Shown here in pieces: positions 557 to 15,796 of a stretch of 64,000 nucleotides of DNA (within the stretch, counting starts at the first letter, position 1; each line of letters opens with the position of its first letter). The position numbers were made by a program, and so were the translations under genes. The DNA lies in assembly GCA_038868075.1 (NCBI GenBank), contig JAWBXB010000001.1, positions 2,872-66,871 on the forward strand, read 5' to 3'. The notes below the pieces were generated by a model. The model was given only the letters and a program-made list of their open reading frames with translations, made no database searches and had not been told where the DNA came from. This DNA comes from Candidatus Bathyarchaeia archaeon. GTDB taxonomy: Archaea; Thermoproteota; Bathyarchaeia; Bathyarchaeales; DTEX01.

Positions 557-1105
557 TTACTGGATATCAACTTCTACAGCAACACCCTGCTTTATTAGGG
601 CTTTAGCATTCTCCTCGGGTAGGGTTGCTATATCCTCAGGTTTGAATGGACCGTAAACTCTCATATCCGCCCCAACTATTTGGGGCATTTCCTTAAGAAT
701 GCGTACTACAATGAAGCCTTTAGTCCTTGAATATTTAATTCGGAATTTCTGTCCCTGTAGAATATCTCTGAGGAAGGATTCGTAGGATTCTACTTGGTTT
801 GATAAACCATCATATAATGTCCCCTCCTCTTCAGTAAGCGCTGTTAGAGGAACCGCTTCTCTTCTTGTTATTAATCGCATCATCTTCTCATATCTTATGC
901 GAATCAAGTCGCTGATCATTTTCATAGTATACTCCTCCTCCTTCCTTAGGAGTTTACCTCTAACGCTTTCCTCATCAATCATTCTCCTCTCTTCACGGAT
1001 CTTCTGCATATAGTTAATTAGGCGGCTGTAGAAGTCTTTCGGGAGACTCTGTAGCTCGGGGTTCTCCTTCTCTCTCCTCCATGCTTCTAGGAGTTCATCA
1101 TACAT
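557..1105 (-). CDS. GINS complex subunit (Gins51/Gins15-type)
   Basis: N-terminus [26 protein letters not shown] and C-terminus [47 protein letters not shown] fit the archaeal GINS pattern. Abuts priS with no gap, an arrangement known from Sulfolobus. Confidence 0.65.
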
Positions 1106-2350
1106 TTAATCTATCACCCTACCAGCATTCTTACATAGTAGGAAGATTGCAGCTGGAAGCGGGAGAGTAACGGTCTGCTTCTCAAATGGTCCGAAGATCT
1201 CTTCCCCTAGTCTAAATCTAGGAGCTTCCTCAACATATATTTTAACCTCATCGTTCCCTTTAAATGCTAAAGCTCTCTTAAGTGGATCAAACTCTTCGAT
1301 CTCATCGGCTGGAAAGGAGACTTTAAGTAAACCTGTTTTACCATGTAATGTTCCAGGCAAGCGTATAAGCCTATGGATGTCAACTGTGACAACAGTATCG
1401 ACTTTTGCTGATTGAAGGGATATGCCGCGCTGAATTATTTTCCTCCATCCGCTTAATCCTAAACCTTTCACCATATTCCAAGGTCCGCTAGTCCTCCAGC
1501 TCCTTAAAATCTCATCCTTATTTGCAATAATTTCTTCAATAACGCTACTCTTCAATCCCAGTCTCTTTAGATCCGTAGGGGACGCTACTAGAAGGAATTC
1601 GTAGGTTCCTTTAGCTGCGCGTCCACGCCAGCCAGCTTCGTCCAAATTTGGACCAATAATTATTCTTGTGCCGCCGCTTCTAATTTCTTCAAGTCCATGG
1701 AATATTGGATCTATTCCAGTTCCAGTAACATAGTCGACTATTTCCTTTCTCGCAAATGAATCCATCTTAAGAATCTCGTCGTTTTCAACTTGAACATGGT
1801 ATCCTCTATGCCCACTAAATGCGCATTTAATCTCCTTAATTGAGAAGCCAAAATCATTCGTTAATATATCCATAAGTTTTATTGTCTCAGCCCTAGTTGT
1901 TTCTAAACATACCTCGCAGGGCCATGTTCTCTCATCGAAACTGCTATTTCCGCAGTTTGGGCATTTATCAGGCGCCTTCCCTCTATCCTTTAAGCCGCAG
2001 TTTTTACATGTCCATGTGTCATGCTCTTCATTACATTTTGTGGGTATATGGTCGGCGTCTATATCGAAGAATAAGTCTGATCCAAGCCATCCCTTCTCAT
2101 CCATTTTTGCCTCAGGCATACTGTAGTAGGCTGTTGAGTAATAAACGTTTGAGGGAACATTCCTCTTTATGAATTCTTTTAGGTCTTCAGCCCTCAAAAA
2201 ACCCTTATGCCTAACCATTACGTTCTCCTTGAAAAGCGTGAAGCCAAACTCTCTGCTCTCAATCGATTTGGGAATTTCAACCCTATTGATGCTCTCGCTA
2301 TAGAATTTGGAGAAGCTTTCACGGATAAATGTTTGATTATCCATTCCCAA
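1106..2350 (-). CDS. priS: DNA primase small (catalytic) subunit PriS
   Basis: AEP motifs LFFDIDADH (DxD), FSGHRGYHVQV, IHRLIRLPGTLHGKTG, and Zn-knuckle CKNCG...CPNCG. Confidence 0.9.
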   Translation of the reverse strand: MGMDNQTFIRESFSKFYSESINRVEIPKSIESREFGFTLFKENVMVRHKGFLRAEDLKEFIKRNVPSNVYYSTAYYSMPEAKMDEKGWLGSDLFFDIDADHIPTKCNEEHDTWTCKNCGLKDRGKAPDKCPNCGNSSFDERTWPCEVCLETTRAETIKLMDILTNDFGFSIKEIKCAFSGHRGYHVQVENDEILKMDSFARKEIVDYVTGTGIDPIFHGLEEIRSGGTRIIIGPNLDEAGWRGRAAKGTYEFLLVASPTDLKRLGLKSSVIEEIIANKDEILRSWRTSGPWNMVKGLGLSGWRKIIQRGISLQSAKVDTVVTVDIHRLIRLPGTLHGKTGLLKVSFPADEIEEFDPLKRALAFKGNDEVKIYVEEAPRFRLGEEIFGPFEKQTVTLPLPAAIFLLCKNAGRVID

Positions 2351-2606: not shown

Positions 2607-3152
2607 TTGTCTAAAAATGAACCAGTTAATCCTTCTAGGATAAATCCGAAATTTAGGTATGAAGTTGCCAAGATGCCTGGCGGCGAAAAGCTATTACAGT
2701 GCTTTCAATGTGGAACATGCACGTCCGATTGTCCCGTTGCAAGATTCGATGATAAATATAGGCCGAGAAATATTATTCGCATGGCGCAGTTAGGCTTAAA
2801 AGATAGGGTTTTAAGCAGCGATTTTCTCTGGCTTTGCGCCTCATGTTTCACATGTACGGATCGATGCCCCCAAGGTATTGAGGTTGCAAGTGTAATAAGA
2901 ATTCTAAAGAATATGGCGGCTATGGAGGGGCGTATACCGCAAGCCTTTAAGGTTCTTCTAGGAAACCTTTTCAAAACAGGCTATATATACGAGATTCCCG
3001 ACTCAAGGATTAAAAGGCGTGAGACTCTTGGGCTCCCGCAGTTACCAAAAGCAAATATTGAGAATTTGACGAGACTCCTAGAGAACCTGGATATTAAGAG
3101 GTTTCTCGAGGGGGCTCCTCAGAAAATTTCGGAGGGTAAAATATGGGTGTAG
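2607..3152 (+). CDS. hdrC: Heterodisulfide reductase subunit C-like 4Fe-4S dicluster protein
   Basis: CFQCGTCTSDCP and CASCFTCTDRCP cluster motifs. TTG start preceded by AAGGAGAGG. Overlaps the following hdrB-like gene. Confidence 0.75.
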   Translation: MSKNEPVNPSRINPKFRYEVAKMPGGEKLLQCFQCGTCTSDCPVARFDDKYRPRNIIRMAQLGLKDRVLSSDFLWLCASCFTCTDRCPQGIEVASVIRILKNMAAMEGRIPQAFKVLLGNLFKTGYIYEIPDSRIKRRETLGLPQLPKANIENLTRLLENLDIKRFLEGAPQKISEGKIWV

Positions 3153-4030
3153 AATACAAGTATATAATTTATTTGGGTTGCGCAATCCCATATAGGGTTT
3201 CATCCTATGAGGTCTCGGCGAGAAAGGTCTTGGATAAGCTGGGTGTTAATCTGGTTGAGATGCCGGAGTTTAATTGCTGTGGTTTACCATTGGAGCCAAT
3301 AAGTCATGAACTCACATTTATGCTCTCTGCAAGGAACTTGGCTATAGCTGAACAATTAGGATTAAATATTCTAACATTATGTCCTGGATGCGCTGGCACG
3401 TTAAAGAAGACTAATAGGGTACTTAAAGAGAATAAGACGCTTAGGGAGAAGGTCAATAAACATCTAGGTGAGACTGGTTTAGAGTTTAAGGGAAGTATAG
3501 ATGTGAAGCACATATCTCAGGTTCTGATCGAAGATATCGGCTTAGACAAAATTAAGAGGTCGATTGTTAGACCGCTTAAAACCCTAAGGGTTGCAGAGCA
3601 TAGTGGATGCCATTTATCAAGGCCGAAAAAATATATTAATTTTGAGGATCCGGAGAACCCGAAGGTTTTAAGAACTCTTATTGAGGTTACTGGGGCCAAG
3701 TGCGTGGAATATTTAGGTGAAACTGAATGTTGTGGTTCAACAATAGTTGCCATAGATGATAAGATATCACTCTCTCTTGTTAAGGAGAAGCTCCTACATG
3801 TTAAGGAGGCGGGGGCTGAGGCATTAATAACCATTTGTCCAGCATGCCACATAATGTATGATGCAAATCAAATACGTGCCGAAAGAATGTTTGGCGAGAA
3901 ATACGGTATACCCGTCTTACATTATACGCAGTTGCTCGGCTTAGCTATGGGTATGAGACCTGATGAGCTTGGCTTTGATGAGCTACGGGTAAACCCCTCT
4001 GGAATATTAGAACGGATATTGAAAGCCTAG
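3143..4030 (+). CDS. hdrB: Heterodisulfide reductase subunit B-like (two CCG domains)
   Basis: Two CCG motifs (EFNCCGLP, ETECCGST) plus CPGC / CPAC. 10-nt overlap with hdrC. Confidence 0.8.
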   Translation: MGVEYKYIIYLGCAIPYRVSSYEVSARKVLDKLGVNLVEMPEFNCCGLPLEPISHELTFMLSARNLAIAEQLGLNILTLCPGCAGTLKKTNRVLKENKTLREKVNKHLGETGLEFKGSIDVKHISQVLIEDIGLDKIKRSIVRPLKTLRVAEHSGCHLSRPKKYINFEDPENPKVLRTLIEVTGAKCVEYLGETECCGSTIVAIDDKISLSLVKEKLLHVKEAGAEALITICPACHIMYDANQIRAERMFGEKYGIPVLHYTQLLGLAMGMRPDELGFDELRVNPSGILERILKA

Positions 4031-8698: not shown

Positions 8699-9793
8699 AT
8701 GTTTTGGAATAAAGATTTTAGAGACCCTAAAATTGCGAAGAGAATAGTTGAGAAGATACATGAGGTTGCTCCGAGAAAAGATTCTGTTAAGATTTGCCAT
8801 GTCTGCGGCACACATGAGTGGACTATTTCACATCATGGTATTAGGAGTTTGCTTCCAGAAAATGTTGATGTTATTGCTGGCCCAGGCTGCCCAGTTTGCA
8901 TTGTGCCAGCGGCTGAGGTTGATGAGGCTGTCGAGGCTGCGCTTAGGGGCGCTGTGCTCACATGTTTCGGTGACTCCATCCGTGTTCCAGGCTCCAGTAT
9001 GTCGCCTTTGGATGCTAAAGCTAAGGGTGCTGACGCCCGCATAGTTTATAGCGTTATGGATGCTGTGAGAATGGCTGAGAAGGAACCTGATAAAGAGTTT
9101 GTTTTCTTCGCAATCGGTTTTGAGACAACGGCGCCGTCAACGGCTGCCGAGATAATTAAGAAACCGCCTAGAAACCTTAGCTTTCTGGTTTCGCATAGGC
9201 TTATTCCCCCAGCTATGGAGCTCATGCTGGGCATAGGTGACCTTCAGATTGACGCATTTATTGCCCCTGGACATGTAAGCACAATCATAGGTTTAGAGCC
9301 CTATGAGATTTTTCCAAAAGCCTATAGGATGCCAACAGTTGTAGCCGGTTTCGAGCCTATAGATGTTCTCCTAGCGATATATATGGTTTTGAGGCAGATT
9401 AGGAACAGCGTTGCGATCCTAGAGAATGAGTATAAGCGGGCGGTGACATGGGAGGGGAATATTAGGGCAAAAGAGCTTATGAGGAGGGTGTTTAAGGTTG
9501 TAGGTGGGGATTGGCGGGGGCTTGGGAGGATACCGGACTCAAAACTAGATCTTAAGGAAGAGTACTTGGATTATGATGCTCATGAAAAACATAATATTAG
9601 GGTTAGGAGTGGCAGGGATATTCCACCTGGATGTAAATGCCACCTAGTTATCATAGGGAAGATTAAACCAGTTGAGTGCCCAATGTTCATGAAGGCATGT
9701 ACACCCCAGAAGCCTGTGGGCTCATGTATGGTTAGCATAGAGGGGACATGCAGGGTGTGGGCTATGACGAAACAGGCTAATATTAGAGCCTAG
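8699..9793 (+). CDS. hypD: Hydrogenase maturation protein HypD
   Basis: CHVCGTHE, GPGCPVCI, FAIGFETTAP and C-terminal Cys-rich region, typical of HypD. Directly downstream of hypC. Confidence 0.95.
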   Translation: MFWNKDFRDPKIAKRIVEKIHEVAPRKDSVKICHVCGTHEWTISHHGIRSLLPENVDVIAGPGCPVCIVPAAEVDEAVEAALRGAVLTCFGDSIRVPGSSMSPLDAKAKGADARIVYSVMDAVRMAEKEPDKEFVFFAIGFETTAPSTAAEIIKKPPRNLSFLVSHRLIPPAMELMLGIGDLQIDAFIAPGHVSTIIGLEPYEIFPKAYRMPTVVAGFEPIDVLLAIYMVLRQIRNSVAILENEYKRAVTWEGNIRAKELMRRVFKVVGGDWRGLGRIPDSKLDLKEEYLDYDAHEKHNIRVRSGRDIPPGCKCHLVIIGKIKPVECPMFMKACTPQKPVGSCMVSIEGTCRVWAMTKQANIRA

Positions 9794-9828: not shown

Positions 9829-10128
9829 CTAAAACCATTTTGTCAGGTCTTTCCTTAGGATCCTTGGGTTTAGGATTACTTCCAGAAATCTATCCCTTAC
9901 GGGCTCATAAACCTGCTTAAAGAATTTTTGTTGGTTAAGGAGGGTCTCCTTAGGGAAGCCCTTTAGGTATTCTATTGCTGCCTGCCAAGCCCTCTCATAG
10001 CTTACTATGCCAGCGATATGTCCAGCTATCTGCCTATCATAATCCTCAGGCTTCTGCGTCTGATCACCTATAGTAAACCATCCATCCTTAGACACGAAGG
10101 CTACTTCATCACCTATTTGAACAGCCAC
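9829..10128 (-). CDS. Hypothetical 99-aa protein; either translationally coupled to, or the frameshifted C-terminal part of, the upstream AEP-like gene
   Basis: GTG start overlapping the stop of 10113..11111 by 16 nt. Its frame stays open upstream to 10167, i.e. into a G6/C6 homopolymer (10163..10168) where a +/-1 shift would fuse both ORFs. Confidence 0.4.
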   Translation of the reverse strand: MAVQIGDEVAFVSKDGWFTIGDQTQKPEDYDRQIAGHIAGIVSYERAWQAAIEYLKGFPKETLLNQQKFFKQVYEPVRDRFLEVILNPRILRKDLTKWF

Positions 10129-11111
10129 TTCGCTTCCTGAAGCAGATTTAATATCGCTTTCACCCCCCTACCCTTAAGCAGTCTTCTAGAAGCTATCTCC
10201 CTAACATGCTTTTTAGCCCAAGCATAAAATATAGCCCTATTTAACCCAAAGGATTTAGCCCTCTCCAAATCATCGGTTAAAAGATAGTATCTTGCCGCTT
10301 GGAGCAAACCCATAACCTGGAAGCGCCCTATTTTACCACCCTTTAAATCGGCTTCGACGCTTGCCCCCAAGGTTTTCTGGACTGTTACAGATACAGCTGT
10401 CCTTATATGGGTGTTATTGGATGTGCTGAGCCAACCCTTATATCTTCCAACCATTTTTATGGCTTCCGAAGCCGCCTCGTCACCCTCAACATAGATTCTC
10501 CATTCAGTGTTATGTTTGAAGCTATCTGGGTTAGCCCACTCAATTTCAAAGCTATCTATTTCATCAGGCTCAAAGCATACGCAGCAGAGGTTTCTCCTCC
10601 TATGTAATGATAGTGGTGCCGTGAAAACCCTCTTCAAGTCTATTTCATTCTCAACCTTAATGCTATTATACTTTGATATTACATCCAGTATCTTCTCCCT
10701 ACATCTCTCAAGAGCTAAGTCTACTAGGGAGTATGCTACATCGAGAGGGTTATGTTTAGATAGGATTTCGCTTGAGAAGCATCTCTCATGAACATGGACG
10801 TGGGCTCCCTCACTGCTCCATTTAATAAAAACCGACTTAATTATGCCTAGTCGCTCGAGCTCATCAACTATTATCCTAGCAACATTAATAACTCCTTTCC
10901 ATTCATTTAATTCGCCATCAATATCCCATATTGGTGAGGCATAGGCTATATTAGCGGGATCCTCAAGAATGAATCTATTAGACAAATCCTTATAGATATT
11001 TATTGAGCCATAAATAGATCTTGGGTTCACGCCACCGAAATGTTTCAGCATGTCCAAAACATCCTGAGAAGTATTGACAGATAATGGTTTACCGTCCCTC
11101 CAATACCTCAA
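10113..11111 (-). CDS. Divergent archaeo-eukaryotic primase (AEP / PriS-like primase-polymerase) with C-terminal helical domain
   Basis: Motif-by-motif parallel to the bona fide PriS in this window: RSIYGSINIY vs SNVYYSTAYY; PIWDIDGEL vs LFFDIDADH; WSSEGAHVHVH vs FSGHRGYHVQV; IDLKRVFTAPLSLHRRRN vs VDIHRLIRLPGTLHGKTG. Lacks the Zn-knuckle insert. TTG start is uncertain. Confidence 0.65.
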   Translation of the reverse strand: MRYWRDGKPLSVNTSQDVLDMLKHFGGVNPRSIYGSINIYKDLSNRFILEDPANIAYASPIWDIDGELNEWKGVINVARIIVDELERLGIIKSVFIKWSSEGAHVHVHERCFSSEILSKHNPLDVAYSLVDLALERCREKILDVISKYNSIKVENEIDLKRVFTAPLSLHRRRNLCCVCFEPDEIDSFEIEWANPDSFKHNTEWRIYVEGDEAASEAIKMVGRYKGWLSTSNNTHIRTAVSVTVQKTLGASVEADLKGGKIGRFQVMGLLQAARYYLLTDDLERAKSFGLNRAIFYAWAKKHVREIASRRLLKGRGVKAILNLLQEAKWLFK

Positions 11112-11802
11112 AAAACCCTACTACTTAAGGCTCCACCCTCAAGAGCAACCCATCTACCTCTACAGTAATCAGTAATCTCGCACCTAACAACATCACTTAA
11201 ATAATATTCCTCCGAGGGGATTGCACCCCCAACTATCTAAGCACCTAGAGGTAAAAGAAAAACGTAGTGAGACATAAAAATTATCACGGGAAAATATGCA
11301 AAAATACTCCAGAAAAATAAATTAACAGATCCCAGGAAGTAAGATCCCATCAACATTCAATCCCTCTTTATGATAACCAAGAAATTTTTTCACGGAATGA
11401 CAACTGTACTCATCTTCCTCCCCAATTCTCCTATGAGATTCCACTGAAAATTGAAGAAGAATATTATTGGTAAACCACGAGTATGCTGAGACATGAAGGG
11501 GAATCCCATGCATTTTTGGTAAGCATGATTCTAATCGTTTTACCTTTCGCCGAAAATAATCAGCCCTAACATCGTGAGATAGTTGTGATGTTTAAACATG
11601 GAGTTCAACATAATCGAAATATGCTTCTATCCATCCACCACAAGTTTCTATAAATGGTTGAATTAAATGAGTTTTATCCACTTTAATGTTAAATCTTCTC
11701 TCCATGCTTTCTATTATAGGCTTTAAGTCTAAATCTACTTCATGCCATACTCCTAGCTCTATCCCATCACTATCTAAGAACCTTACTGAATAGTAATAAA
11801 GC

Positions 11803-14800
11803 CTTTCAACTTCATATTATTCTCTTTGTGAGATTCCTGAAACCATTGTTGATTGCGCGATGTTTTTACTGATGGATACCTTTCAATTCTCTTTGTGAGA
11901 TTCTATTACTCTGTTTACAAGCTCAATATCATCCTTATCTATATCTACTTTCAATTCTCTTTGTGAGATTCTACGGCTGGCAAAAAGACTTTGTAGGGCT
12001 AAGAAAGGAAGCTTTCAATTCTCTTTGTGAGATTCACACTTATCGGCAAACCGGTTAATCTGAATCATGAAGCTCGCCTCTTTCAATTCTCTTTGTGAGA
12101 TTCAGGGGCAGAACATGCAGTTTCCGCTATGCCCATAAAGCTTGTAGCACTTTCAATTCTCTTTGTGAGATTCCATAACCGAAAGCTTCCGGCTAACCAC
12201 GAAGACAAAATTTACTTTCAATTCTCTTTGTGAGATTCTGAGACCAAAGTTGCCATAAACGAGCTGGCTGAATCAATACTTTCAATTCTCTTTGTGAGAT
12301 TCATCAGCATTCAAATTAAGAGCATAATCTTTAAGGATAGGCTTTCTTTCAATTCTCTTTGTGAGATTCTGGAGAAAAGAATAAGAAGAGATAAGTTTTA
12401 CATCATTATGCTTTCAATTCTCTTTGTGAGATTCCCAGAAGACCTAATTATGAGGATAGATAGGCTGGTTGAGTCCTTTCAATTCTCTTTGTGAGATTCA
12501 AACATTTCCACCCGGCGCAGAGCAGACCTCATAATATTTTCTTTCAATTCTCTTTGTGAGATTCCGTCATGCAGCCGCCAGCTTAGGCTTATATCATCTA
12601 TATCCTTTCAATTCTCTTTGTGAGATTCCGGCCCAACAGCCGCCTGATCCATCTGCAGGTCTTTCTCCCTTTCAATTCTCTTTGTGAGATTCTACGCTTA
12701 CTTTACTGGGGAAACTCTGAGGCAGATTGAGCTTTCAATTCTCTTTGTGAGATTCGTGGCTCCTGAAACAGATTAGAGACACGCCAGGAACATACCACTT
12801 TCAATTCTCTTTGTGAGATTCGTTACAGCTTTGCTATCTCCGATACTGGCTTTCGCTTAGAAGCTTTCAATTCTCTTTGTGAGATTCCATAGCCAACGCT
12901 CCCCACTAAGCTCATACGCAACGCTAACTTTCAATTCTCTTTGTGAGATTCTGAGGAGGGAAAAAAGCATAATGATTGAGAGCGCAAGTATACTTTCAAT
13001 TCTCTTTGTGAGATTCCAAATAATAATCATAGCGAAGAACAGAACCCCCACCCAAACAACTTTCAATTCTCTTTGTGAGATTCTTACGCATGGAAACCTC
13101 GTTCCAAATACCTTTAAGGCCTTTCAATTCTCTTTGTGAGATTCATTATTTGTGATCCACCATACAAGCTTGCAATTCATAGACTTTCAATTCTCTTTGT
13201 GAGATTCCATATTCGATTCTTAATCCCTCAGCCGTCTCCTCAATCCTCTTTCAATTCTCTTTGTGAGATTCCCTTCGGCTTAACTTTAAAGGCTCTTCCA
13301 AAAGTATTCTTTCAATTCTCTTTGTGAGATTCTTAGAGATGTGCCGGGCGCCTATCATGGCAGAATAATCCGTGCTTTCAATTCTCTTTGTGAGATTCCG
13401 TTATATCCCTCACAATATCTCTTGCCACAGCATTCTTCTTTCAATTCTCTTTGTGAGATTCGCACCTATCCCACTTCCTACGGGGGCCGTTATAACCAAG
13501 ATTGCTTTCAATTCTCTTTGTGAGATTCTGCAAAATGGTTTATTCTGATTGGAGGTGGTGAGATTTGGTCTTTCAATTCTCTTTGTGAGATTCCCAAAGC
13601 ATTAACTGCATTGCGAAAGTCCTCATTTGTATTATACCTTTCAATTCTCTTTGTGAGATTCAAGAACACCATACATATTAACAGATAGTTATTTGATAAC
13701 ATTAAATCTTTCAATTCTCTTTGTGAGATTCAGCAAAAAGATGAGTAAGCCGATAGGTAAAGAAGACTTACACATACTTTCAATTCTCTTTGTGAGATTC
13801 AATCCTCATTTGCTTTATAAATTCTAGTGCTTTTTTACTTTCAATTCTCTTTGTGAGATTCAGAGTTCATCGCAGACTCAATCCGCACGCAAATTCTAAT
13901 GTGGAGAACCATAACCACTTTCAATTCTCTTTGTGAGATTCCGGAGACAAGCGCAGCTATAGCGGTTATAACGAGCATGATCTTTCAATTCTCTTTGTGA
14001 GATTCAGCGAAAAGGCTGTTGCTCCGCATGAGACGCCGAAGGCTCCTGCTTTCAATTCTCTTTGTGAGATTCTTGATAGGGATATTTATGAAGCCCTCTG
14101 GAAAATCGTGACTTTCAATTCTCTTTGTGAGATTCAAACTCATCATACGCACTACTTATCAATCTCATACATTCCTTTCAATTCTCTTTGTGAGATTCTG
14201 TGCTGTAGTTCCAGATGATTGCAGGATCCACTGTGGCTGCCTTTCAATTCTCTTTGTGAGATTCTCTGGCAAAGAGGTATACACGTTAGCTTGTTTGTGG
14301 TGTAGGGACGGCTTTCAATTCTCTTTGTGAGATTCCTGACGAGAACTATTACTGCTTGCTCTAATGAAATTTGTTTCGCTTTCAATTCTCTTTGTGAGAT
14401 TCTTAGGGCGAGAATGCCCCGCCAGTCCTCCTCCTTAATCTCTTTTTTATACTTTCAATTCTCTTTGTGAGATTCCTATATGGATATTTTGGTGGAAAAA
14501 TATATAAAGCTTTGTATCCATATACTTTCAATTCTCTTTGTGAGATTCCAGCAATAATGGGAATAGGCGCATTATGTTTATGTGTAGCATTCTTTCAATT
14601 CTCTTTGTGAGATTCCAATTAAGGGATTAGTTTGGCTATTATTAGCAAACTTCTGGACTTTCAATTCTCTTTGTGAGATTCGTAAATGTTCGGTTGAATA
14701 ATAATTTTAATCCAGTTTTAATCTTTCAATTCTCTTTGTGAGATTCCCTTTTGTTTCCATCCTTTTTCACCCAGACGAAAAATCGCTTTCAATTCTCTTT

Positions 14801-14876
14801 GTGAGATTCTAAAAGAGGCCGATTGTTATGCTGCTTTTGACTACATTAGAAACTTTCAATTCTCTTTGTGAGATTC
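11803..14876 (-). CRISPR. CRISPR array: 46 identical 24-nt repeats (CTTTCAATTCTCTTTGTGAGATTC as written on +), one degenerate terminal repeat at 11803..11836, and 46 unique spacers of 37-56 nt
   Basis: All repeats were located by hand (first perfect repeat 11880..11903, last 14853..14876) and the spacer lengths sum correctly. Reverse complement GAATCTCACAAAGAGAATTGAAAG ends in ATTGAAAG (canonical 8-nt crRNA 5' handle) and has a TCTC/GAGA mini-stem. The degenerate repeat lies at the low-coordinate end, so transcription is inferred on the minus strand with the leader at 14877+. Confidence 0.97.
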
Positions 14877-15082
14877 CGAGGGTTTTTCTTGCTCCGTTTA
14901 CTTATCTGGGCATTTTTTGTATTTAAGTTTTGTGGTGTTGTTTCGGTGGTTGCTGATCTGCATTCAGGGTATGTGTTTCCACCGAAGCGCAGTGGAAAAA
15001 ATATAGTGAGTCGGTGTTTCCATTGGAGAATTGGTTATGTTTTTATTTTTTGGTTGTGGAGTCAATAGATTAAAAAGTTGGT
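14877..15082 (-). promoter_or_regulatory. Putative CRISPR leader and divergent promoter region shared with the DUF5131-like gene
   Basis: Non-coding stretch next to the newest repeat. On the minus strand, BRE/TATA-like ACAAAACTTAAATAC (TATA core 14927..14919) lies about 45 nt upstream of the first repeat. Direct repeat GTGTTTCCA at 14973..14981 and 15014..15022. Inverted repeat TTTCCAC(14976..14982)-N9-GTGGAAA(14992..14998). Palindromic TCCATTGGA at 15019..15027. Confidence 0.5.
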
Positions 15083-15109
15083 TTGAGCATAGTTATTCTT
15101 TGGAGGTTA

Positions 15110-15796
15110 ATGGTGGTTGCTGGTAAGAGGTTTGGTGAAATAGACTGGTCTTGGAATCCGATAACTGGCTGCCTTCACAACTGCAATTACTGTTGGTCTA
15201 GGATGTTCTCTAGGAGGCTTGCTTCCATGAGCGTTGAGCCCTATAAAACTCATGGTTTTAATCCCGCCTTCGCTGAGTGGAGGCTTAGGCAGAGGATTCC
15301 TGATGGAAAATTTATTTTTGTTTCAGATATGGGTGATATGTGGGGCGATTGGGTTCCAGGGGAGTGGATTGAAAGCGTTTTAAGGGTTGTTAGATCTAAG
15401 CCTAAATCAAAATTCTTCTTTCTAACAAAGAACCCAAAGAGATATTTGGAGTTTGAGGATAAATTTAGCGAGAACGTTGTTTTAGGAGTAACCTTGGAGA
15501 CTAATAGGGATTATAAATTGAGTAGGGCGCCCACTCCAAGAGAGAGATATGAGGCTATGATTAAGCTTAACTGGAAGTGGAAAGCTATCGTTATTGAGCC
15601 AATCCTAGACTTCGATGAGGAATTCATAGACTGGATATATAATATATCGCCAGAAATAGTCTACGTAGGCTACGATAATTATGGAAACAATCTTCCAGAA
15701 CCTAAGCTCGCCAAAACACTAATACTTCTAGAAGCCTTAAGGGGCATAATCGACCTAAGACCTAAAACAATAAGGAAAGCATGGAATGAACCATAA
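15110..15796 (+). CDS. Phage Gp37/Gp68 (DUF5131)-family protein with radical-SAM-type CX3CX2C motif
   Basis: IDWSWNPITGCLHNCNYCWSRM resembles the family N-terminus (iewt..tWNPvtGC...C..CYa). ATG at 15110 is preceded by GGAGG (15103..15107); the track ORF starts at a TTG at 15083. Confidence 0.6.
   Translation: MVVAGKRFGEIDWSWNPITGCLHNCNYCWSRMFSRRLASMSVEPYKTHGFNPAFAEWRLRQRIPDGKFIFVSDMGDMWGDWVPGEWIESVLRVVRSKPKSKFFFLTKNPKRYLEFEDKFSENVVLGVTLETNRDYKLSRAPTPRERYEAMIKLNWKWKAIVIEPILDFDEEFIDWIYNISPEIVYVGYDNYGNNLPEPKLAKTLILLEALRGIIDLRPKTIRKAWNEP

Follow-up and report, generated by a model that had tools for sequence, protein, structure and literature searches.

A 64,000-nucleotide stretch of the genome of a Candidatus Bathyarchaeia archaeon (GenBank contig JAWBXB010000001.1, positions 2,872 to 66,871; hereafter the window) carries a broken gene related to PriS, the catalytic subunit of archaeal primase, next to an array of clustered regularly interspaced short palindromic repeats (CRISPR). 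In our assessment, this gene probably belonged to a conserved chromosomal family of PriS-like archaeo-eukaryotic primases (AEPs) and was inactivated only recently, and its CRISPR neighbor is functionally unrelated to it. The family is large, conserved, chromosomally inherited, and unannotated.

Two open reading frames (ORFs) had been called at this locus. ORF1, whose TTG start was assigned mechanically, overlaps the 99-aa ORF2 by 16 nt in another frame, and the frame of ORF2 is open back into a G6 run, as an earlier reading made from the DNA letters without database searches (the sequence-only reading) had described. P0002, the closest full-length relative (463 aa, 87% amino acid identity), spans the ORF1/ORF2 junction uninterrupted and starts 36 residues upstream of the ORF1 start. 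Six-frame translation placed the codons of an N-terminal remnant upstream of ORF1 in the third frame. P0002 lies on contig L012, which served as the reference for mapping the lesions at the DNA level, and in silico repair of these lesions gave a 461-aa protein that is collinear with P0002 and 87% identical to it. Judged from these alignments, ORF1 and ORF2 are evidently fragments of one gene, and the ancestral protein would have been about 461 to 463 aa long. The sequence-only reading had suspected a single interrupted gene, which holds, but its estimate of about 430 aa was too short, as it had missed the second frameshift, the lost start codon, and a deletion. For annotation, the consequence is that both ORFs in the window belong to one pseudogene.

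Comparison with L012 resolved four lesions, namely the loss of the start codon, two frameshifts in homopolymer runs, and a 6-nt in-frame deletion within the EGEGD motif (Table 1). No ATG, GTG, or TTG codon occurs between the upstream stop and the former start codon. The G6 run, previously considered a possible regulatory switch, is only one of these four lesions and is not conserved in relatives, which speaks against such a role. Two Joint Genome Institute metagenome contigs from different samples (L001 and L002) contain exactly the same 1.4 kb, all lesions included. Because these contigs match the window at 100% in their flanks but differ from it in their CRISPR arrays, we regard the three sequences as separate assemblies of very close strains, and because the lesions recur identically in the two other metagenome assemblies, they are not random assembly errors. 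The genes around the broken AEP gene, hypF (759 aa), hypD, and hypE, are intact.

Using three close outgroups, we assigned 23 derived amino acid changes to the window branch. G135S in motif II replaces a glycine present in 31/31 other members, and K216E, G260R, and G317D fall at positions where the ancestral residue is conserved at 97%, 94%, and 87%, respectively. The residues lost through the deletion, E244 and G245, occupy columns conserved at 87% and 100%. On the P0002 branch, none of the 16 derived changes hits a column conserved above 75%. Constraint has been relaxed on the window branch. The dN/dS ratio relative to L012 is 0.13 at a dS of 0.40 (0.06 for hypD), so most of the divergence arose while purifying selection still acted, and decay set in only recently. 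With its start codon lost, two frameshifts, the EGEGD deletion, and these four substitutions, the window copy most likely gives no functional product.

The catalytic signature of AEPs is still legible in the window copy, in which motifs I (DxD), II (sGxGxH), and III (hD) are all present in order, with the glycine of motif II changed to serine. The canonical PriS of the window, correctly recognized beside GINS in the sequence-only reading, has these motifs at residues 93-101, 178-188, and 323-340. The order is the same as in ORF1, as that reading had stated, but the spacing is not: motifs I and II are 38 aa apart in ORF1 versus 85 aa in PriS, and motifs II and III 59 versus 145 aa. The Zn-knuckle of the canonical PriS (CKNC..CPNC, residues 115-133) lies between motifs I and II, an interval in which ORF1 has no cysteine pairs; the reported absence of this element from ORF1 was thus confirmed.

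Profile searches placed the gene below the usual thresholds. ORF1 scored 16.6 bits against PF01896 (E 0.01; cutoff, 26.8) and 15 bits against TIGR00335 (cutoff, 143.5). Across 32 family members, subthreshold matches to PF01896 were found in 10 and to LigD_Prim-Pol in 4, and a sequence profile search of the Protein Data Bank (PDB) with the family alignment returned one spurious match only (E 0.6). Structure prediction, which the sequence-only reading had suggested, supported the AEP fold. An AlphaFold2 model of P0002, rather than of the window copy, reached a predicted local distance difference test (pLDDT) score of 86, and its comparison with the PDB by Foldseek gave 65 matches at E ≤ 1e-3, with AEPs accounting for 50/50 among those listed. 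The best matches were the LigD polymerase domain (2fao, 2.9e-6), Prim-PolC (5op0), human and Xenopus Pri1, and a CRISPR-associated primase-polymerase (CAPP; 7nqe). The Methanocella nonhomologous end joining (NHEJ) polymerase and the Sulfolobus and Pyrococcus PriS proteins were also recovered, and the named AEP matches span E values from 3e-6 to 1e-4. In an hhalign comparison, the motif III/IV region aligned over 53 columns with that of the window's own PriS (identity, 38%).

When 32 diverse members were aligned (mean column identity, 55%), D98, D100, S134, G135, G137, H139, D193, R196, and H205 proved invariant, as did most of the stretch AKSFGLNRAIFYAWAK. The family also carries motif G/S (Y-x-S, some 27 aa ahead of motif I) and a His/Arg/His signature, both of which are typical of archaeal PriS (PMC12770985; PMC5862659). 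In origin, the family goes back to the catalytic subunit of archaeal primase, and the window gene is, on its predicted fold and motifs, a second, divergent PriS-like AEP, in agreement with the sequence-only reading. With archaeal PriS (PF01896/TIGR00335) the family shares the AEP fold, Y-x-S, DxD, SGxGxH, and the D..R..P-x-S-x-H arrangement (the "HRH" signature). It differs in lacking the Zn-knuckle and the inserted helical domain, in its motif spacing, in its subthreshold Pfam scores, in its C terminus, in coexisting with a canonical PriS, and in having no known partnership with PriL; no PriL gene was seen adjoining family members in the loci examined.

Table 1. Features of the pseudogene locus and its surroundings in the window (L012, contig carrying the relative P0002)
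Feature	Coordinates	Strand	Basis or remark
Whole decayed gene (pseudogene), PriS-like AEP family	9829..11215	minus	Homologue and DNA alignment
ORF1, 332 aa, mechanical TTG start	10113..11111	minus	AEP catalytic domain without N terminus, plus conserved helical hairpin
ORF2, 99 aa, out of frame with ORF1	9829..10128	minus	Called part of the C-terminal stretch
N-terminal remnant EEYYLSDVVRCEITDYCRGRWVALEGGALSSRVF, about 35-36 conserved codons, ending at a premature TGA	11108..11215	minus	Six-frame translation
AEP motif I, PIWDIDGEL	10908..10934	minus	ORF1 residues 60-68; DxD metal ligands
AEP motif II, WSSEGAHVHVH	10788..10820	minus	ORF1 residues 98-108; family-invariant Gly of WSG is Ser here
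AEP motif III/IV, IDLKRVFTAPLSLHRRRN	10590..10643	minus	ORF1 residues 157-174; aligns with PriS VDIHRLIRLPGTLHGKTG
Helical hairpin GRFQVM..AKSFGLNRAIFYAWAK, start of the C-terminal module	10209..10328	minus	Highest conservation within the family
C-terminal alpha/beta part of the module	9829..10165	minus	Frame differs from ORF1
Former start codon, now TCG (Ser); TTG in L012	11213..11215	minus	DNA alignment
Frameshift 1, T6 run; T7 in L012	11110..11115	minus	DNA alignment
6-nt in-frame deletion, single TGAGGG; tandem TGAGGGTGAGGG in L012	10482..10487	minus	Glu-Gly lost from EGEGD
Frameshift 2, G6 run; G4 in L012	10163..10168	minus	DNA alignment
Canonical PriS with Zn-knuckle	1106..2350	minus	NCBIfam PriS E 1.5e-70; PF01896 E 2.4e-12
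Gins51	557..1105		Adjoins canonical PriS
hypD	8699..9793	plus	Convergent downstream neighbor; same arrangement in L003-L005, L013, and L014
CRISPR array, 46 identical 24-nt repeats GAATCTCACAAAGAGAATTGAAAG plus degenerate terminal repeat, 46 spacers	11803..14876	minus	
AT-rich leader	14877..15082		High-coordinate end of the array
DUF5131 gene, CX3CX2C motif	15083..15796	plus	Direct divergent neighbor of the AEP gene in array-free relatives

A database search returned 783 homologues, almost all of them single proteins of 445-490 aa, and the family was found in 423 species-representative genomes. Counts of context, arrays, and Cas proteins given below out of 80 refer to the best 80 of these 423 species genomes, all of which are metagenome-assembled genomes from outside the window's clade. 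The best 80 belong to the TACK archaea (Bathyarchaeia, Nezhaarchaeales, Methanomethylicia, Korarchaeota, Brockarchaeota, Culexarchaeia, Thermofilaceae, and Desulfurococcales) and to the Asgard archaea (Odin, Baldr, Njord, and Asgardarchaeum). No cultured host appeared among the matches listed, including those of a second search started from a Desulfurococcaceae member, which returned metagenome-derived sequences only. Identity across phyla is 45-55%, with one copy per locus, and a single full-length match in one frame was obtained at 80/80 loci. At L028 (9977-11344), that frame has a stop in place of the invariant Trp of FYAWAK; the stop could be a nonsense mutation or an error in sequencing, and L028 is a possible second case of decay. 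A further locus, L036, holds a second, partial AEP copy (11622-12383, minus strand; residues 8-268, 46% identity) on the strand opposite to the full-length gene and 4 kb from it.

The neighbors of the family gene vary and include the DNA ligase of Nezhaarchaeales, a 1036-aa DEAD helicase, TIP49, XPB/Bax1, tRNA synthetases, and transporters. Clustering of 1,450 neighbor ORFs from 93 sequences (92 loci and the window) yielded no conserved operon partner; the commonest neighbors were an ABC ATPase (13/80), hypD (7/80), and DNA ligase (about 6/80). In Nezhaarchaeales, the ligase gene lies immediately downstream of the family gene and encodes a three-domain enzyme (A_N, A_M, and A_C), which we take to be of the replicative Lig1 type. 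Ku was not seen in the family loci. None of the homologues listed has a Pfam domain on record, their source label is "hypothetical protein," neither Pfam nor NCBIfam has a model or name for the family, and the literature searched, which covered primases of archaea, Asgard lineages included, as well as new families of AEPs, does not describe it.

The C-terminal module of about 165 aa has no recognizable relative. Modeled alone (residues ~296-463; pLDDT 87, predicted template modeling score 0.82), it is predicted to comprise a long hairpin of helices and a disordered linker, along with three or four short strands and a bundle of helices. It has no cysteine cluster, and neither Foldseek against the PDB (best E 2.4) nor Pfam gave a match. 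The idea that its beta part corresponds to a PriS C-terminal domain (CTD) or a GINS B-domain was rejected, as hhalign against the window's Gins51 and PriS returned probabilities below 1%. Searching 1.84 billion representative sequences with the family profile retrieved 404 proteins, among which, alongside full-length forms, are many AEP-only proteins (~290-310 aa) that match only profile positions ~1-283 and many module-only proteins (~150-200 aa) that match only positions ~302-462 and start right at GRFQVM. Each kind is encoded by real, separate genes that have upstream regions of their own, and when the two were tested as partners of a split gene, no adjacency was found. The two ORFs in the window do not reproduce this division: the G-run break falls after the hairpin and not at the natural boundary between AEP domain and module, and ORF1 lacks the N-terminal 36 residues that natural AEP-only proteins retain.

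Several variants of this architecture were observed. The free-standing module proteins (P0242, P0243, P0249, and P0274-P0335; loci L095-L100) form a diverse family of their own, with GRFQVMA..AKSWGLNRAIFYAAAK followed by an alpha/beta domain; their genes have no AEP gene within 6 kb, gave no Pfam or PDB match, and in several genomes are convergent with aEF-2. The AEP-only relatives P0204, P0206, and P0212 (~290-310 aa) end in a short basic tail, and in P0202 and P0207 (~415 aa), the AEP domain is joined to a different, unrelated C-terminal domain. In the divergent full-length protein P0214 (458 aa), WDIDG has become WFIGL and the Asp of motif III is gone, whereas the C-terminal module is kept; from its sequence, P0214 is probably an inactivated AEP with a noncatalytic role.

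The trailer end of the CRISPR array lies about 0.7 kb from ORF1. Both the 46 spacers and this distance are as originally reported, and PADLOC found no Cas proteins among the 69 ORFs of the 64-kb window. The repeats end in ATTGAAAG, which we take to be the usual CRISPR RNA 5′ handle; given this end, the position of the leader, and the degenerate repeats at the low-coordinate end, the array is probably transcribed on the minus strand. Forty spacers are common to the window and L001/L002, five at the leader end occur only in the window, and one occurs only in L001/L002. Because the strains differ at the leader end, spacers must have been acquired recently, the absence of Cas proteins from the 64 kb notwithstanding. 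In the sister clade L003-L005, arrays with the same repeat share no spacers with the window and have cas1-cas2-cas4 beside them. On L012, the array trailer lies upstream of the intact family gene, so insertion of the array did not itself kill the gene. Decayed repeat relics such as GGAATCTCATAGGAGAATTGGGGAGG occur between trailer and gene in the window (11418-11441, minus strand) and on L012 (81-163), and their position indicates that the old trailer once came as close as about 200 nt to the former start codon.

Gene order in relatives shows how the array came to lie there. Two array-free Bathyarchaeia loci, L014 (74% identity) and L017 (69%), have the order ParA/Mrp-hypE-DUF5131-AEP-hypD(-hypC), which is the order of the window minus the array, so the array entered the divergent intergenic region between DUF5131 and the AEP gene. 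The earlier suggestion that gene and array had been wedged into the hyp cluster together was therefore wrong, as only the array was inserted. We conclude that the array is a lineage-specific insertion with no functional tie to the AEP gene and that their adjacency is a local accident. DUF5131 and the AEP gene may form a functional pair, an arrangement seen only in Bathyarchaeia. The CX3CX2C motif of DUF5131 is radical-SAM-like (L014, 7980-9737; L017, 8650-9756; L093/L094, 6101-7744), and the L093 protein holds a LAGLIDADG (intein-like) insert. DUF5131 also neighbors the AEP-only paralogue P0204, in a different context.

These data bear on the idea, raised by the sequence-only reading, that the gene encodes an array-associated factor; such a factor would be a CAPP-like primase-polymerase that cooperates with the array, for instance when spacers are acquired. 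In its favor, the gene sits right next to the trailer of an active array of 46 spacers in this clade (window, L001, L002, and L012), cas1-cas2-cas4 and the same repeat lie 3.7 kb from the intact family copy on L003, and CAPP is among the structural matches. The survey of homologues, however, turned up widespread chromosomal single-copy genes: 79 of 80 loci have no array within 10 kb, a repeat scan of all fetched loci found arrays only in the close clade (L001-L005) and on L062 (5.4 kb away), and tblastn with the L003 proteins found Cas1, Cas2, or Cas4 at 0/80 loci and nowhere in 1.15 Mb of family loci. The hypE-DUF5131-AEP-hypD order is kept in array-free relatives, and the five new leader-end spacers were gained while the gene was broken. 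The family resembles the Marinitoga CAPP (PDB 7nqe/7p9j) in its AEP fold and, in this one clade, in lying beside an array, but it is neither fused nor adjacent to cas1/cas2, has no type III context, and matches CAPP no better than it matches PriS or LigD. An archaeal CRISPR-linked primase was thus an attractive but wrong lead; the idea is already largely refuted, and we consider it extremely improbable. Much the same degree of disbelief applies to an origin as the leftover replication module of an integrated plasmid or virus. Orphan archaeal AEPs are often encoded by mobile elements (PMC5862659), the gene has decayed, and toxin-antitoxin genes lie near the L003 copy. Yet no relative was found among the 2.9 million viral contigs of IMG/VR, PHROGs gave no match, and BFVD gave generic AEP-fold matches only. 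Conservation at 45-55% identity across phyla with one copy per locus, the absence of integrases, helicase fusions, and att-like contexts from the loci examined, the housekeeping neighbors, and a position inside the hyp cluster that is kept across species all speak against such an origin. Mobile-element AEPs such as pRN1 ORF904, PolpTN2, and the viral primase-helicases are encoded on plasmids, viruses, or integrated elements and are usually fused or linked to a helicase or to a PriL-like Fe-S domain; the family differs from them in its housekeeping neighbors and in a C-terminal module with no PDB match and no cysteine cluster. Of the three explanations first proposed, a PriS paralogue, possibly with a role in repair, fits best.

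The gene might instead still be functional, read through two -1 ribosomal frameshifts or transcriptional slippage at U6/G6, or switched by phase variation of the homopolymers. Both breaks lie in homopolymers, the remedy is identical for the two (an extra base or a -1 shift), dN/dS is low, and the lesions are fixed in three assemblies. Against this, neither site is out of frame in the nearest relatives (T7 and G4), so no slippery site is conserved; the start codon is lost as well; two residues are gone from an invariant motif and the invariant glycine of motif II is replaced; and the 80 other species genomes all give a single-frame full-length match, one with an in-frame stop. Runs of six are also short for efficient slippage, and we judge continued function unlikely. 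We regard as very unlikely that the frameshifts are sequencing or assembly artifacts in an intact gene. Homopolymers are classic error sites and all the data are metagenomic, but three assemblies from different samples share the identical sequence, the neighboring hyp genes are intact, and the TCG codon, G135S, and the 6-nt deletion are not explicable as homopolymer errors. Inactivation of a chromosomal PriS-like gene remains the reading we favor, and some points weigh against it. The dN/dS of 0.13 reflects mostly purifying selection and hence very recent decay. ORF1 might retain a residual function, and, in principle, a -1 shift or one nucleotide added during transcription at U6/G6 could get past either frameshift. 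The homopolymer lengths rest on the agreement of three assemblies of near-identical strains, and the view of the genome spans 64 kb, leaving room for a second, intact copy elsewhere. As for the family, its proposed function is drawn solely from fold, motifs, and context, and no conserved operon partner was found.

Comparison with other AEP systems suggests what the intact protein may do. The bacterial LigD-Pol and Prim-PolC enzymes, with the Methanocella polymerase of NHEJ and base excision repair, are the best structural matches (Foldseek E ~3e-6, template modeling score to target ~0.55) and are likewise compact AEPs without a Zn module; some family members, those of Nezhaarchaeales, also lie directly upstream of an ATP-dependent DNA ligase. 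Identity to these enzymes is only 12-15%, however, LigD and Prim-PolC lack the C-terminal module, neither Ku nor a phosphoesterase nor a dedicated LigC/LigD partner was seen, and ligase adjacency is confined to about 6/80 loci. PolpTN2 and the nanoarchaeal PriS-PriL fusion similarly combine an AEP domain with a conserved, largely helical C-terminal module in one polypeptide, and there too, the accessory module can be a separate protein. In contrast to them, the module of the family lacks Fe-S cysteines and has no detectable similarity to PriL-CTD or PriX, and the gene is chromosomal rather than plasmid-borne, with a canonical PriS retained.

We propose that the intact protein, of about 460 aa, would consist of a compact AEP domain with Y-x-S, DxD, SGxGxH, and D..R..P.S.H but no Zn-knuckle, tied by a putative disordered linker to the conserved 165-aa module (helical hairpin and small alpha/beta domain). 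It could act as a self-contained primase-polymerase in chromosomal DNA repair or repriming, with the module as an accessory part that might fill the role played elsewhere by PriL-CTD, PriX, or Zn-fingers. In the window genome, the loss of the start codon, the two homopolymer frameshifts, the 6-nt deletion in an invariant motif, and the substitutions at invariant positions would have put an end to this activity. A bolder version, which we advance tentatively and hold to be doubtful, is that uncultivated TACK and Asgard archaea possess, in the intact family, a second and so far undescribed system of this kind, that the new module serves its PriS-derived catalytic domain and replaces PriL or the Zn-finger in primer initiation or repair synthesis, and that the window records the recent loss of this system in one Bathyarchaeia population. 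Through this locus, an AEP family with strong conservation comes to light in over 400 species-level genomes; its C-terminal module is unmatched. Should the family be active, a second primase-polymerase would exist beside PriS/PriL in many thermophilic archaea of the TACK and Asgard groups, which would bear on archaeal replication restart and repair and on the evolution of AEP accessory domains.

Elsewhere in the window, PADLOC gave single-ORF matches to the defense-candidate models mad3 (E 1e-27), mad8, PDC-M30B, PDC-M41B, AriA, and ATPase-Toprim_I-B. Between PriS and hypF lies a pair of HdrC-like (Fer4) and HdrB-like (CCG) genes (2607-4030, plus strand), a position that is kept in L003-L005 and L013.

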